DNA of 64,000 bases from a virus (IMGVR_UViG_3300036453_000006:1022-65021), one strand, 5' to 3'; positions 3,949 to 54,204 are shown, counted from the first letter of the stretch. Made by a program: numbers and translations. The notes: generated by a model from the sequence alone, not told the origin.

Positions 3949-4189
3949 TTTGGTGTTCCTTTATGAGGGGGACAGGGGTCATTATATACCCTGTAATTTT
4001 TGCGAGCTTATACGATTTTGTGAAGGGTCATCATGCGTCCGAAGAAACCGGCACGATTGATTTTGCGAGCGGCACCTTTGGCTGTCCAGAAACGGCGACC
4101 GCGGAAGCATACAAATCCAGTAATATCGTTTTTGACAAAGTATTTACGACGCATGATAGGCTCCTAGATTCTGAACAGCTTATGGGTGG

Positions 4190-4651
4190 TTAGGCGGGAA
4201 CTGTCGTGGTCAACAATTCAGTAGGGGCTTCATTAAACTTCACGTTGCTGATGAACCGTTCTTCAAGTTCACGACGAGCCAGGGTTGCTGCCTGAGAGTC
4301 AGCCGACGGATATCCTGCGGCCTTGGCTGCTGCTTTGGCGTCTTCGAATTCTTCATCGATAACGGCCTTAAGCAGAACCAGATACGTCAGGTGGTCCGTG
4401 ATCTTTTCATCCCACTTTTCAACAGCATGTGTACCAGTCTGATCGCCGATCATGTCGTAGATTGAGACGGTGTGTTTGATCATCATGCCGGCCAGAGCAT
4501 CTCGAGGAGACAGCTTCTGAAGTGCCGCAGCTTGCTTGAAGTTATGCAGACGGTCTCGGTCGGTGGCGTACTCCGTACCCTTACTAACCAACATAGACTC
4601 GATCTGACCAAGCTGGGTCTGGACAATGTTGTTAAAGCGTTCGTTGTTCAT
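4190..4651 (-). CDS. nucleotide-modification-associated / MazG-like all-alpha domain protein (DUF1599-like)
   Basis: K..EYA...DRLHNFK...KH...I.D...W.EKI.D.L.YL.LL pattern; start reset to ATG 4651 (GGAG RBS). Confidence 0.5.
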   Translation of the reverse strand: MNNERFNNIVQTQLGQIESMLVSKGTEYATDRDRLHNFKQAAALQKLSPRDALAGMMIKHTVSIYDMIGDQTGTHAVEKWDEKITDHLTYLVLLKAVIDEEFEDAKAAAKAAGYPSADSQAATLARRELEERFISNVKFNEAPTELLTTTVPA

Positions 4652-4718
4652 CAATTTCTCCTTGTTATATACAGTCGTACAGGTCTTCATCAGCGACAAA
4701 GACCATGGGTATTTCTTT

Positions 4719-5543
4719 TCAGCCCCACACTCGGGTGTATTTAATGGTGGGCTGCTTTCGATATTCGAGTGCCATGACTGGTTTGCCGTCACTCAGAACC
4801 GCACTGAATTGAATTTCAAGTACGTTATCGGTGGTCCATCCAACTTCTTCGCCAACGGCAACCTGGGGCAGCCCGATCAGTCGATAGAAATCATTCTGGC
4901 TGGCGTACATATCGTTAATGCACTGCCGATTGATGTCATTTTCAGCCTTTCGAATATCTTCTACTGTGGATTCGAAGTATCGTCCGGTAAACGTATCAAA
5001 GCATGGGATATTACCCGAGCCAATGATCGTCGTAGATGGACCCGCGGCAATTACCCGATCTTGGGCAATCTCATCCCGAACCCGGGCTTCTTTGTTCGCT
5101 CCAAGGGTATGCACTACCTTTTCTTTATATTCACCGTAGGCACGCTCAGTTAACGTGTAGAGGCTGATGAGAGCCGCATTACGACGAGTGTGGATCGAGT
5201 TTACACTGATGATACACATGGCCGTACCTACACCAACCATGGCCGCTGGGATATAGTGTCGCCAACCGAGCTGAATGATGGTTTTGGGCTCATCCCACGG
5301 CTCGGCGAACTCATAGGGCTCAAAGTCGCGTTCGCCAGACTGCCAGCGCTCGCTATGGTTGACAGTGATCTCTGCCCGTCGATCAGCCTCATGATTGATG
5401 TCTCTAACGGCTCCTGGTGTAGCTCTAACTGCAAGCACAGCGGTAGCTAGAAGCCCTGAAACACCCAATCCGGTCAAAATTGTCGGGGTGTTGTTTTTGA
5501 GGAGGCTATGCGCCGATTTAGTCAACATTCCGAATTTGCTCAC
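4719..5543 (-). CDS. conserved phage membrane-anchored protein (DUF6353-like), paralog 2
   Basis: 274 aa; NTPTILTGLGVSG, RRNAALISLY..TERAYGEYKEKV, parallel to 350..1267. Confidence 0.65.
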   Translation of the reverse strand: MSKFGMLTKSAHSLLKNNTPTILTGLGVSGLLATAVLAVRATPGAVRDINHEADRRAEITVNHSERWQSGERDFEPYEFAEPWDEPKTIIQLGWRHYIPAAMVGVGTAMCIISVNSIHTRRNAALISLYTLTERAYGEYKEKVVHTLGANKEARVRDEIAQDRVIAAGPSTTIIGSGNIPCFDTFTGRYFESTVEDIRKAENDINRQCINDMYASQNDFYRLIGLPQVAVGEEVGWTTDNVLEIQFSAVLSDGKPVMALEYRKQPTIKYTRVWG

Positions 5544-5579
5544 AGCGGTTCCTTACTTTGCGTTTTCGTGGTGGGTAGT

Positions 5580-5699
5580 CTAGCGGCGAGATTCTCGCAC
5601 AAAGACTCGGATGAGCCATAGCCCTCCAGTGAGCAATGTGAGGATTGCGTCAAACAAGAAGCTGCCAAGACCATACCGATTGCTGCGACGACGAGCCAT
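5580..5699 (-). CDS. 39-aa basic membrane peptide (MARRRSNRYGLGSFLFDAILTLLTGGLWLIRVFVRESRR)
   Basis: Manual translation; strong GAAAGGA RBS; below the ORF-track length cutoff. Confidence 0.7.
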   Translation of the reverse strand: MARRRSNRYGLGSFLFDAILTLLTGGLWLIRVFVRESRR

Positions 5700-5754
5700 T
5701 AGAATTTCCTTTCAAGAAATTAAAAATAAGAAATCCGGTTGGATAACTTATTGA

Positions 5755-5814
5755 GAGAAAAAGAAGAGGGCTCGAACACGGCAGTGTACTAGCATAGACT
5801 TTCGTCTACTCTTC
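5755..5814 (-). ncRNA. candidate promoter-driven small RNA (three-way junction plus U-tract)
   Basis: Follows promoter motif 5811-5840; AGAAGAG/CTCTTCT closing stem, TAGAC-GAAA-GTCTA hairpin, ACAC-TGCC-GTGT hairpin, then TTTT; no ORF. Confidence 0.4.
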
Positions 5815-6004
5815 TATTATAAAGCGTGTAAATTTCGCGAGGGTCAGTTCTTTTTATAGCGCTTTCGATATTTAAAACCTTTAAGCAACATCCCATACAA
5901 AGCCGACCGTCTATAGAGGTGCACTTCGAGACAAGTGGTACATGCAAATAGCATAGTTTTTTTTGTAGCTGACGGACCCATAATTCTCAAACGATGCTTA
6001 TGCA

Positions 6005-6445
6005 TTACTCTCCCGGGGTTTTTTCGAGATTTGCAATTTCTTTATCGATTTCGACTATTTTAATTGCGAGTATATTTTTTCGGTTAATTAACAGCTTTAT
6101 ACGTCGATTAGTTTTTAACTCTGAGGAATCGCTACAGATAGCGTATACTGTGCGGTGAGATATTTCGTACTTGTTTGCTATTTCAAGAACTGACAAGCGA
6201 CCTTCTTGAAAGTCTGCTCGAATTTTGTTATAATTCTTGTTTTTAGGACGACCCTGATAATTATATACATTGTTTGCTTTTCGGGCAATAGCTCGAGCAG
6301 CCATGTCTACATTATTCTTTTTAGCCACGGTATAGATAAAGGGCGCAACTACCTGATTTCGATTTGCAATGTCTCGTGTAGAATATCTCAAATCTTGGAG
6401 GTCGTTTAACACATCAGTGTATTTCTTGTCCGATAGTTTACGCAT
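6005..6445 (-). CDS. helix-turn-helix DNA-binding protein
   Basis: 146 aa from ATG 6445; two HTH-like segments (YSTRDIANRNQV, LSVLEIANKYEISHRTVYAI); AT-rich. Confidence 0.65.
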   Translation of the reverse strand: MRKLSDKKYTDVLNDLQDLRYSTRDIANRNQVVAPFIYTVAKKNNVDMAARAIARKANNVYNYQGRPKNKNYNKIRADFQEGRLSVLEIANKYEISHRTVYAICSDSSELKTNRRIKLLINRKNILAIKIVEIDKEIANLEKTPGE

Positions 6446-52695: not shown

Positions 52696-52846
52696 TAGCT
52701 TTCCCCGTTCTCAGTTTTGATTCCTTCAAACACTGTAACAACTGTATGTGAACACTTATAGCAGGGGCACTTATTTGGACTCTTCCAAGGTGCATCCGCT
52801 TGCCAGGCCAGAACTTCTTTGTCTGTGAATGGCTTTTCAACATCCA

Positions 52847-53335
52847 TTAGCTTTCCCCTTCGACGTACTCGAACGTATAACCTAAATGTACCGCGCGTTG
52901 CCCTCTTAGAACTCCATATATAGCGCTATAATCGCCACCGATGAATCTGGCACATTGCCTTACGGTGCGGAAAACTTCCCCGGTTTCTACAATCCTTACC
53001 GATTTTCCCCAGACGGCGTGAGTCTCTTTCCTACTATGCTGTAGGTGTTCTCTACGCCGCCTTAATTGCAAATTAGGAACCGAGCAATCTGATTGATCAC
53101 CATTGACATGCTTTAAACGCATACCCGGTTCGTAATTATCAAAGAACGCTTGTGCTACGAGCTGATGTACATAATATTCGTGTTGCTCTCCGTAAGTGGA
53201 AAGCGTAACATGGGCATACCCTCCCCCATTATATCGATGTTGAATAAGACTACGAGTCCTTAAGGACCGTATAACGCCGTAATTACTAACCTGATAGTTG
53301 GGGAATCCTCGGATCTCCGCCCAAACTTCTCGCAT
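52847..53335 (-). CDS. NUMOD4-HNH-NUMOD1 homing-endonuclease-like protein
   Basis: W..I.GFPNYQVSNYG, VHQLVA.AF, KHVNGD..D.SV.NL, ETGEVF......A..IGG....I. Confidence 0.8.
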   Translation of the reverse strand: MREVWAEIRGFPNYQVSNYGVIRSLRTRSLIQHRYNGGGYAHVTLSTYGEQHEYYVHQLVAQAFFDNYEPGMRLKHVNGDQSDCSVPNLQLRRRREHLQHSRKETHAVWGKSVRIVETGEVFRTVRQCARFIGGDYSAIYGVLRGQRAVHLGYTFEYVEGES

Positions 53336-53356
53336 TGTTACATATGCTTTCAGTAA

Positions 53357-53542
53357 TCAACTATTAGCGTTTTTAACTCGCCATTCCTTTACCCAGTCAG
53401 GAATGTGCTTGGGGCACCAGCTGGAACCGTCTTTAGACATAAACCACCCAGAAGATCCGGCTTTAATCTTTCCCCAACGATGATCTTTATGGCTCTCATC
53501 ACAAGTCGGGTCACTACATACAACATCGCTTACTTTATTCAT
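53357..53542 (-). CDS. small zinc-finger protein
   Basis: CSDPTC ... GW.......WCPKH. Confidence 0.6.
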   Translation of the reverse strand: MNKVSDVVCSDPTCDESHKDHRWGKIKAGSSGWFMSKDGSSWCPKHIPDWVKEWRVKNANS

Positions 53543-53621
53543 GGGGTTACAGCCTTTCTTAGTTAGTGCCTGTTTTTACTGAAAAAGAAAGGCCTTGTTA
53601 AGGGCCCGTCTTTTCAGTATT

Positions 53622-53852
53622 CTATTCTCGGTTGATACGTTCTGGCGGAACGAGTCCTTTGAGTACTGCATATGCCCCCATGAGGCTGGCAATATTGTTG
53701 GACGTCTGGATTTCGAATGGGTGCGAGTAGAAAGCGAGGACGGCTGGTTGGCCTTTGGCTTTGAGTACTGCATGCAGTCGATCCATCTGTTCAAGCGAAA
53801 GCTCAGCAGCACGGGAGGCAATGAGTTCGGGATCTGCGTTGGGGTCAAACAT
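53622..53852 (-). CDS. cassette gene (76 aa)
   Basis: Promoter 53874-53905, AAAGGA RBS, hairpin 53591-53606. Confidence 0.75.
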   Translation of the reverse strand: MFDPNADPELIASRAAELSLEQMDRLHAVLKAKGQPAVLAFYSHPFEIQTSNNIASLMGAYAVLKGLVPPERINRE

Positions 53853-53948
53853 GGTAGTTTTTCCTTTCATAGAGGGGTCTATTATATACCATGTAAGATG
53901 TGCGACAGATAAAAAGAAAGGCCTTGTTAGGGGCCCGTCTTTTTAGTT

Positions 53949-54155
53949 CTATTTGGTGATTACAGTGAATGGTACTGTTGGGCGACAGATGATTACCATT
54001 TCGTCGATTCGTTTGGTGTTTGGTCGTATGTGGAATTCGAGGTTAATAAATCCTCCGTGGGGTCCGGAGTTTTTCATCAATTCGAATTCCACACCGGCAA
54101 AGTCAATCGTATCTCCGAGGGTAAGTTCGGCTGCAGTTTTAATTACTTTAGGCAT
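53949..54155 (-). CDS. cassette gene (68 aa)
   Basis: Promoter 54172-54203, AAGGAG RBS, hairpin 53920-53936. Confidence 0.75.
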   Translation of the reverse strand: MPKVIKTAAELTLGDTIDFAGVEFELMKNSGPHGGFINLEFHIRPNTKRIDEMVIICRPTVPFTVITK

Positions 54156-54204
54156 AGTATCTCCTTAATAGGGGGTCTATTATATACCATGTAAGATGTG
54201 CGAC

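Follow-up and report, generated by a model that had tools for sequence, protein, structure and literature searches.

A three-box promoter element repeated on one strand of a siphovirus genome and its probable reader, the two-barrel RNA polymerase of the phage

Which RNA polymerase reads a promoter that carries a perfect TATAAT and has no -35 element of the usual kind? The question is raised by a siphovirus described as soil-type, IMGVR_UViG_3300036453_000006, whose IMG/VR contig is judged complete and of which we analysed 64,000 of the 65,021 bases (positions 1022-65021 of the contig, referred to here as the window). One strand of the window carries 22 copies of the element TCGC-N6-TACA-N5-TATAAT and also encodes a 926-aa protein with a DFDGD motif. 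A first-pass annotation had considered the element to be the cognate promoter either of this encoded RNA polymerase or of the host sigma-A factor acting with a phage activator. We favour the former: the 22 elements are probably the cognate promoters of the phage's own two-barrel polymerase, a reading we hold with some reserve. It draws on the fold of the protein, on a co-occurrence of motif and gene which holds in both directions and includes phages of Firmicutes, on several lines of evidence for the site at which RNA starts and on variants of the hexamer. Promoters for phage polymerases are already known as a kind, the motif has been reported once and taken for a host -10, and a polymerase role for the protein has been suggested from its sequence. 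What is new is the link between motif and polymerase, the re-reading of TATAAT as an element abutting the start, and the description of variants throughout the lineage.

Copies were counted by a pattern search for TCGC-N6-TACA-N5-TATAAT, exact or with at most one mismatch, with shuffled sequences providing the expectation. The exact pattern occurs 18 times (0.00 expected) and the relaxed pattern 22 times (0.01 expected), always on the minus strand. A weight matrix derived from related phages recovered the same 22 minus-strand copies with scores of 29.8-47.7 bits, none on the plus strand, and no match scoring between 6 and 29 bits anywhere in the window. The 22 copies therefore represent the full, sharply bounded set. 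The number, strand and invariant spacing described in the first-pass annotation are borne out by both methods. The deviant copies it named also exist, at coordinates that differ by a few to about 30 nt: the TATAGT assigned to 11448 occupies 11454-11459 within copy 11454-11478, the AACA assigned to 16218 belongs to copy 16224-16248, and instead of a single ACGC deviant at 47002 there are two, at 47009-47033 and 47740-47764. The first copy begins at 3981 and not at 3975.

Every copy lies between genes and points in their direction, and TATAAT is perfect in 21 of the 22. A GAAAGGA-type Shine-Dalgarno site and a start codon follow within 20-33 nt in 20 copies, and a short hairpin with a T-run lies ahead of most. 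The sequence directly after the hexamer is equally restricted and of the two types noted previously, GACCCC-type leaders in 20 copies (GACCCC, n=15; GAACCC, n=1; AGACCCC or AGAACCC, n=4) and AGAAG in the other two.

The absence of a TTGACA-like -35, also claimed at the outset, was confirmed by a sigma-70 scan over positions 3000-17500, a region holding 18 of the 22 copies: it returned 22 sites against 23.8 +/- 5.0 expected and paired none of the 18 TATAAT boxes with a -35. The place of a -35, 16-18 bp upstream of the hexamer, is occupied by the bases before TCGC together with its TC. None of the 22 copies has a TGn extended -10, positions -15/-14 being G or C followed by T, C or G. Two other arrangements were tried and rejected. 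TACAnn as the true -10, with a start inside TATAAT, would have mostly G (58/76) at its -7 position, and TTTACA as a -35 would be only 5 bp away from the hexamer instead of 17 bp, with no conserved hexamer 17 bp downstream of it.

If the host enzyme is the reader, one possibility is a promoter of the MotA/AsiA kind, in which sigma-A reads TATAAT as a -10 and a phage protein placed at TCGC and TACA replaces the -35 contact. The activator could be the 926-aa protein, through its helix-turn-helix (HTH) modules, which resemble sigma region 4, or another phage protein. Such an arrangement would account for a perfect -10 in 21 of 22 copies without a -35 and for two boxes, one helical turn apart, standing where an activator would sit; a weak match of the open reading frame (ORF) at 6005-6580 to the PHROG 'late transcriptional activator' even offers a second candidate. 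Since -10 recognition by sigma-A is conserved across the host phyla, the conservation of TATAAT is in itself no argument against the host. We nevertheless judge this explanation unlikely. No MotA/AsiA-like match was obtained among 27 ORFs scanned against Pfam and PHROGs, from which the small ORFs were left out, and the hexamers of a sub-lineage, the invariably purine nature of the first two bases and the probable position of the start, described below, all speak against it.

Recognition of a -10 by factors of the sigma-70 family depends on the A at position 2 of the hexamer. In the window this A and the T at position 6 are present in 22 of 22 copies. A related contig, G065 (58% GC), keeps TCGC-N6-AACA-N5 and a GAGACC leader in 17 units, with the hexamers TTAGAT, TGAGAT, TGAAAT, TTAAAT or TAAGAT, and A is found at position 2 in only 4 of its 18 hexamers. 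Six further contigs with hexamers of this type, which bring the sub-lineage to seven, have the A in 12 of 47. Because the sub-lineage drops the A that sigma-70 needs, and the upstream boxes and purine start are constant, the hexamer appears to behave as an A/T-rich melting region ending in T. The initial description of TATAAT as a -10 box has to be revised: it is better read as a melting and start region at about -6 to -1, and annotating perfect TATAAT boxes of these phages as host -10 elements is to be avoided.

At which position does RNA synthesis begin? With a -10 of the sigma-70 type it does so 6-9 nt after the hexamer. We addressed the position using 433 unique units, drawn from 11 genomes and from 80 IMG/VR loci. 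In non-coding units the bases directly after the hexamer pair with those just before the terminator U-run, and the stems covary. When helices abutting a T-run were collected in an unbiased search, their outermost 5' base fell at -3 to +1 in 46 of 91 cases, with a flat distribution elsewhere (P ~2e-36). The exact reverse complement of nt 1-6 adjoins the T-run in 18 of 96 non-coding units (P 6e-11), compared to 2.6% in a control using the leaders of other units. Nine different leaders are represented, each with its own complement, and neither nt 7-12 nor nt 13-18 shows enrichment of a reverse complement beside the T-run in these 96 units. G-U pairs are common in the closing stems, which favours pairing at the RNA level over pairing at the DNA level.

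Other units provide further indications. In five contigs tRNA-like genes begin at nt 5 after the hexamer. In about 20 units a Shine-Dalgarno site (GAAAGGAG in most) falls within the 8 nt that follow the hexamer, and the start codon is at nt 12-21. Units of Lactococcus phage 1706 have an extended ribosome site that covers nt 1-11, and an RNA beginning at nt 7 would lack these early Shine-Dalgarno sites. In 76 copies picked regardless of the two bases behind the hexamer, both of these bases are purines without exception. In the window itself, the copy at 5816-5840 is followed by a small RNA of about 55 nt (5757..5815, minus strand, predicted by folding) whose 7-bp closing stem, AGAAGAG/CUCUUCU, uses the first seven nucleotides after TATAAT and abuts the U-run; were the start at nt 7, no hairpin would stand beside the U-run. 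Transcripts probably begin at the end of the hexamer or up to 3 nt before it, as judged from these sequence features. Because RNA seems to start at TATAAT, the reader would be the phage polymerase rather than the host enzyme.

The same small RNA has a three-way fold (z -2.6) and contains a T-arm-like stretch, GTTCGAGCC. In related contigs the corresponding position is taken by a recurring family of small RNAs (..AGACACGAA.GT..) and by tRNA-like genes with odd anticodon loops. Rfam contains no family for the small RNAs behind the promoters at 5840 and 47033.

The element is not confined to the window. With identical spacing it is found in phages of six actinobacterial genera (Arthrobacter, Gordonia, Rhodococcus, Microbacterium, Streptomyces and Bifidobacterium) and in Lactococcus phage 1706. 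A search for the 25-bp pattern with at most one mismatch, whose matches lie on the gene strand only, gave 6 copies in Zeina, 9 in Count, 9 in Circum, 8 in Tokki, 7 in Rickmore, 12 in ReqiPoco6, 2 in BitterVaud1 (5 by matrix), 1 in Bilo (5 by matrix) and 1 in 1706 (at least 7 by matrix), more than one copy being present in 10 of 11 isolate genomes. The copies of Rickmore, a cluster DJ phage, take the form TCGC-N6-(T/A)ACA-N5-TATAAT-GAGACCCC, and the units that the matrix detects in 1706 (34% GC) the form CACA..TTTTACA-N5-TATAGT-AGAAAGAAGG, again with the same spacing. One 32%-GC contig has 15 units, of which 14 have TCGT as the first box.

The co-occurrence of motif and DFDGD gene implied by the first-pass annotation holds both ways among these relatives. 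In a sample of 50 motif-bearing IMG/VR contigs, the polymerase is encoded by all 22 that are at least 90% complete, and the 14 contigs without it are fragments. When contigs of at least 33 kb were picked by the polymerase gene alone (n=18), the motif was found in 16, with 2-18 copies each, nearly all on one strand, that of the genes, and reversed-pattern controls gave approximately none.

This distribution also bears on a simpler explanation, namely that these are host-only promoters of the -10 type whose upstream boxes are kept merely because the cassettes are recent copies. It is textbook knowledge that many actinobacterial promoters lack a clear -35. The cassettes of the window do look duplicated and mobile, leaders and hairpins being near-identical within the promoter array, and the announcement of Gordonia phage Vardy reads five copies of a 50-bp motif as a 'TATAAT -10 sigma-70 promoter' (PMC9671010). 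However, the boxes remain at fixed spacing despite polymerase identities of 36-57% and hosts in two phyla. Such conservation across such divergence points to purifying selection and not to recent copying, and the evidence from start sites and hexamer variants applies here as well. We consider a host-only promoter improbable.

Another possibility is that the repeat chiefly serves recombination or cassette shuffling and that promoter activity is secondary or absent. The array is indeed the most variable part of the related genomes and its terminator-promoter junctions flank unrelated small ORFs, an arrangement with a precedent in the PeSL (promoter/stem-loop) cassettes of T4-like phages (PMC4122927). 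This leaves unexplained why the copies are strictly oriented, why Shine-Dalgarno site and start codon follow at a fixed distance, why tRNA and small-RNA genes come immediately behind the hexamer and why all three boxes are conserved at the level of single bases. As the principal function it is very improbable; recombination would be compatible with promoters of the phage polymerase as an added role.

What, then, is the putative reader? The gene at 43356..46136 (minus strand) specifies a predicted single-chain two-barrel RNA polymerase of 926 aa with HTH modules at both ends, an assignment based on motif, PHROG and fold. Its metal-binding loop, GADFDGD (DxDGD type), lies at residues 537-543 and is invariant in 30 homologs. 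The protein matches PHROG 4291, 'RNA-dependent RNA polymerase', over its full length with 1205 bits. The Pfam family RdRP is matched by 16 of the 30 homologs at E <=0.01, the query itself being unmatched. Sigma70_r4_2 is found in 26 and Sigma70_r4 in 25 of the 30 homologs (Pfam), and HTH matches in the query cover residues 93-124 and 894-926. An AlphaFold model, with a mean predicted local distance difference test score (pLDDT) of 76, gave QDE-1 as its best Foldseek match (E 3e-9), followed by the P74 gp62 and P32 gp64 RNA polymerases of the P74-26/P23-45 phages (E ~5e-6), plant RDR2 and, weakly, beta' subunits; the global template modelling score is only ~0.3. Sequence searches gave no match to PDB chains at E up to 1 and no sequence-level match to YonO of SPbeta. 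The model thus describes a two-barrel polymerase of the QDE-1/P23-45 type, for which DNA-dependent RNA synthesis is predicted.

Homologs with 36-57% identity occur in 250 isolated phages, whose hosts are Arthrobacter, Gordonia, Streptomyces, Microbacterium, Curtobacterium, Rhodococcus, Bifidobacterium, Faecalibacterium and Lactococcus, and public protein data include at least 8000 clusters of DFDGD polymerase. The protein had already been proposed as a YonO/crAss-like polymerase and lineage signature by Koert et al. (bioRxiv 10.1101/842583), who do not discuss promoters. Its N-terminal part contains a peptide, HYG..KSGRYPWGSG (residues 23-38; 46025-46070, minus strand), which is invariant in the 30 homologs, is predicted to be disordered (pLDDT <50) and has no second occurrence in the window. 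It might act as a signal for packaging, cleavage or docking of a protein that is annotated as structural in two relatives.

Several points weigh against assigning the 22 elements to this enzyme. A perfect TATAAT in 21 of 22 copies looks like a strong host -10, and the sole paper describing the motif reads it in this way (PMC9671010). The position of the start is deduced from sequence throughout the lineage, and RNA reading through from upstream promoters could in principle make use of the closing stems, of the tRNA starts and of the early Shine-Dalgarno sites; read-through could explain each of these lines singly, but the promoters of the units concerned would then be purposeless. The co-occurrence is confounded by shared ancestry: being lineage-wide, it would have the same pattern for any other conserved phage protein. 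One complete contig of 61 kb, G051 (loci L247-L250), encodes the polymerase and has only one weak promoter-like copy, and neither the matrix nor k-mer counts revealed a repeated intergenic motif in it. A polymerase that reads the promoter of its own gene must enter with the virion DNA, and the only pointer to this is the label 'structural protein' given in GenBank notes to the homologs of 1706 and ReqiPoco6. Finally, the single long operon of YonO and its absent flap, discussed below, fit poorly with many short terminated units.

If the 926-aa polymerase does read these promoters, TCGC and (T/A)ACA would be its specificity boxes. The two boxes start exactly 10 bp, one helical turn, apart and so lie on one face of the duplex, and we infer that the two different sigma-region-4-like HTH modules at the N and C ends of the protein contact them, perhaps one module per box. 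The A/T-rich hexamer (TATAAT, with TATAGT, TATTAT and TTAGAT/TTAAAT in relatives) would melt and permit initiation without being a sigma-70 -10. RNA would start with G or A, at the base that follows the hexamer or as much as 3 nt before the hexamer's end; with such a start the promoter would span about -25 to -1, and GA(G)ACCCC or AGAAG would be the first transcribed sequence. In each unit the promoter would be followed by a leader of 20-30 nt containing GAAAGGA and then by a small ORF or a small RNA, and a hairpin running into U residues would close the unit. The first-pass annotation had pictured polymerase and promoters as a dedicated transcription system for accessory genes. A phage polymerase as reader is supported; the restriction to accessory genes is not, as copies also lie upstream of replication-module, exonuclease and polymerase genes.

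One such copy is the ACGC variant at 47009..47033 (minus strand, one-mismatch search), which has no ORF directly after it and precedes the exonuclease gene by ~0.3 kb and the polymerase gene by 0.9 kb. It heads the block of exonuclease, polymerase and structural genes, with a hairpin and U-run coming at once behind it. The leader of 25 nt (46984..47008, minus strand) is predicted to form a 9-bp hairpin which pairs from nt 2 and runs into a U-run. Because this purine-rich leader folds straight into a hairpin and U-run, it is possible that it acts as an attenuator, or as a very short RNA or switch, in front of the polymerase and structural genes. Positional equivalents are present in Zeina (51050), Tokki (53642), Circum (54406), ReqiPoco6 (73858), Count (74775), FP_oengus (27683) and G065. 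Their first box is ACGC in Zeina, Tokki, Circum and FP_oengus, as in the window, whereas ReqiPoco6, Count and G065 have other first boxes (CCGC, TAGC, TAGA). In G065 this copy keeps TATAAT, and the other 17 units use hexamers of the TTAGAT type.

The copies are distributed along a genome in which the large genes are all on the minus strand. In the order of transcription, a primase-polymerase and other replication genes are followed by exact copies at 54179..54203 (leader AGACCCC, then a 68-codon ORF) and 53881..53905 (hairpin and T-run before, 76-codon ORF after). A helicase and a 2H phosphoesterase gene come next, then the two ACGC variants at 47.8 and 47.0 kb, the former (47740..47764) preceding a 79-codon ORF. 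Behind the exonuclease and the 926-aa DFDGD protein are the lysis, terminase, portal, capsid and tail genes, a block of 30 kb without a promoter copy. An array of 16 promoters with small genes then extends from 16.2 to 10.7 kb. It begins with the AACA variant at 16224..16248, followed by a 103-codon ORF, and continues with exact copies at 15749..15773, 15482..15506, 15185..15209, 14853..14877, 14583..14607, 14225..14249, 14042..14066, 13778..13802, 13544..13568, 13071..13095, 12716..12740, 12387..12411 and 12041..12065, the TATAGT variant at 11454..11478 and a last exact copy at 10681..10705. Beyond the array are the exact copies at 5816..5840, with its small non-coding RNA, and at 3981..4005, which precedes a 79-codon ORF. 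All are on the minus strand; exact copies were called by pattern search and variants by the one-mismatch search, in each case together with the matrix.

The cassettes share further features. Small ORFs behind the promoters (10660-16199, 47713 and 53852, minus strand) often start with Met-Phe-Lys/Asn (ATG TTY AAR), as they also do in Zeina, Circum, Tokki, Rickmore and ReqiPoco6; conservation of the cassette therefore extends into the 5' codons of the ORF. The hairpins ahead of the promoters (10447-15530, minus strand, and related loci) have covarying stems of 5-6 bp and a conserved CTAAC(A) loop, kept even in G064, a 32%-GC contig of a likely Firmicutes-infecting relative. A conserved loop is unusual for an intrinsic terminator, and these hairpins may signal termination to the phage polymerase specifically, or may bind a protein.

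The host is probably an actinobacterium, since the terminase is ~81% identical to those of Streptomyces and Arthrobacter phages. Similarity to isolated phages detectable by megablast (Arthrobacter phages Zeina, Argan and others) is limited to the surroundings of the promoter at 12716..12740, and the only known gene found by an Rfam scan of the window is tRNA-like (56755-56828). The ORF at 6005-6580 (minus strand, 191 aa), which gives the weak 'late transcriptional activator' match over residues 118-162 (E 1e-5), has no Pfam match; its product is a candidate extra transcription factor. The 2H phosphoesterase (2'-5' RNA ligase superfamily; 48321-48869, minus strand), with a weak Acb1-like match, is a separate gene here, and the same Pfam domain is present inside longer polymerase homologs (1045-1076 aa). 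This suggests a fusion with the polymerase and hints at a functional link.

How does this element relate to what has been described? Our literature searches found no description of the promoter class other than the Vardy announcement and no work on the promoters of DFDGD polymerase. The Vardy motif of cluster DJ (PMC9671010) is the same element, intergenic, located in the middle small-gene region and containing TATAAT. That report covers one genome with 5 copies and makes no link to a polymerase, to upstream boxes or to other clusters, nor does it consider the start site. In their general design the promoters resemble those of T7 and SP6, which are rigid blocks of ~25 bp with upstream duplex recognition, a TATA-like part abutting a purine start, a conserved first-transcribed sequence and many co-oriented copies per genome. 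They differ in that the enzyme of the window is a two-barrel protein unrelated to T7 RNA polymerase, that boxes and spacing are not the same and that the start is deduced. T4 middle promoters share a good -10-like hexamer with a phage-specific box upstream in place of a -35; their RNA start 6-9 nt after the -10 and their need for A at -11 are both contradicted here, indirectly, and no MotA/AsiA homolog is among the scanned ORFs. PeSL cassettes (PMC4122927) likewise place junctions of terminator hairpin and promoter between small variable genes in hyperplastic regions, but with early promoters of the host type, whereas the class described here is specific to its lineage and probably read by the phage polymerase.

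Closer parallels come from other two-barrel enzymes. Phage P23-45 has two-barrel polymerases, one of them in the virion. Strongly conserved motifs lie at most 30 bp ahead of its mapped starts, and the presence of the motifs tracks that of the polymerase among relatives (bioRxiv 10.1101/2022.12.01.518664). Like the 926-aa protein these are single-chain phage polymerases, and the P23-45/P74-26 enzymes are among its fold matches. In contrast, P23-45 has one AT-rich and one GC-rich motif, no HTH modules are described on its enzymes, and its promoters were shown by cappable-seq and ChIP-seq, whereas those of the window are read from sequence alone. YonO of SPbeta is also a single-chain two-barrel DNA-dependent RNA polymerase from a phage of Gram-positive bacteria (PMC5467207). 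It transcribes one long late operon from a single start with an undefined promoter and lacks the flap used in hairpin termination (PMC5467207), unlike the many short terminated units found here.

The paper on YonO leaves the promoter and any cofactors of that enzyme undefined (PMC5467207). The present lineage offers an unusually clean handle on how small polymerases of the QDE-1/YonO type find their promoters: teaching collections contain hundreds of its phages in culture, the 25-bp element is sharply defined and is present 5-22 times per genome, variants such as TCGT, TATAGT and TTAGAT occur naturally, and the polymerase carries DNA-binding modules at its two ends. Provided that our interpretation is correct, one protein and one 30-bp promoter in vitro would show the way in which a minimal two-barrel enzyme recognizes and melts a duplex, and a compact orthogonal expression system for Gram-positive bacteria could be derived from it. 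A more general proposal, which we put forward only tentatively, is that a self-sufficient two-barrel polymerase, delivered by the virion, is responsible for transcribing most or all of the genome throughout a very large lineage of phages, by means of two boxes read by its HTH modules and a hexamer abutting the start. Were this true, it would amount to a design in which sigma is built into the polymerase and the phage is independent of promoter recognition by its host, and it could explain host jumps between genera and phyla as well as the mismatch in GC content between these phages and their hosts.

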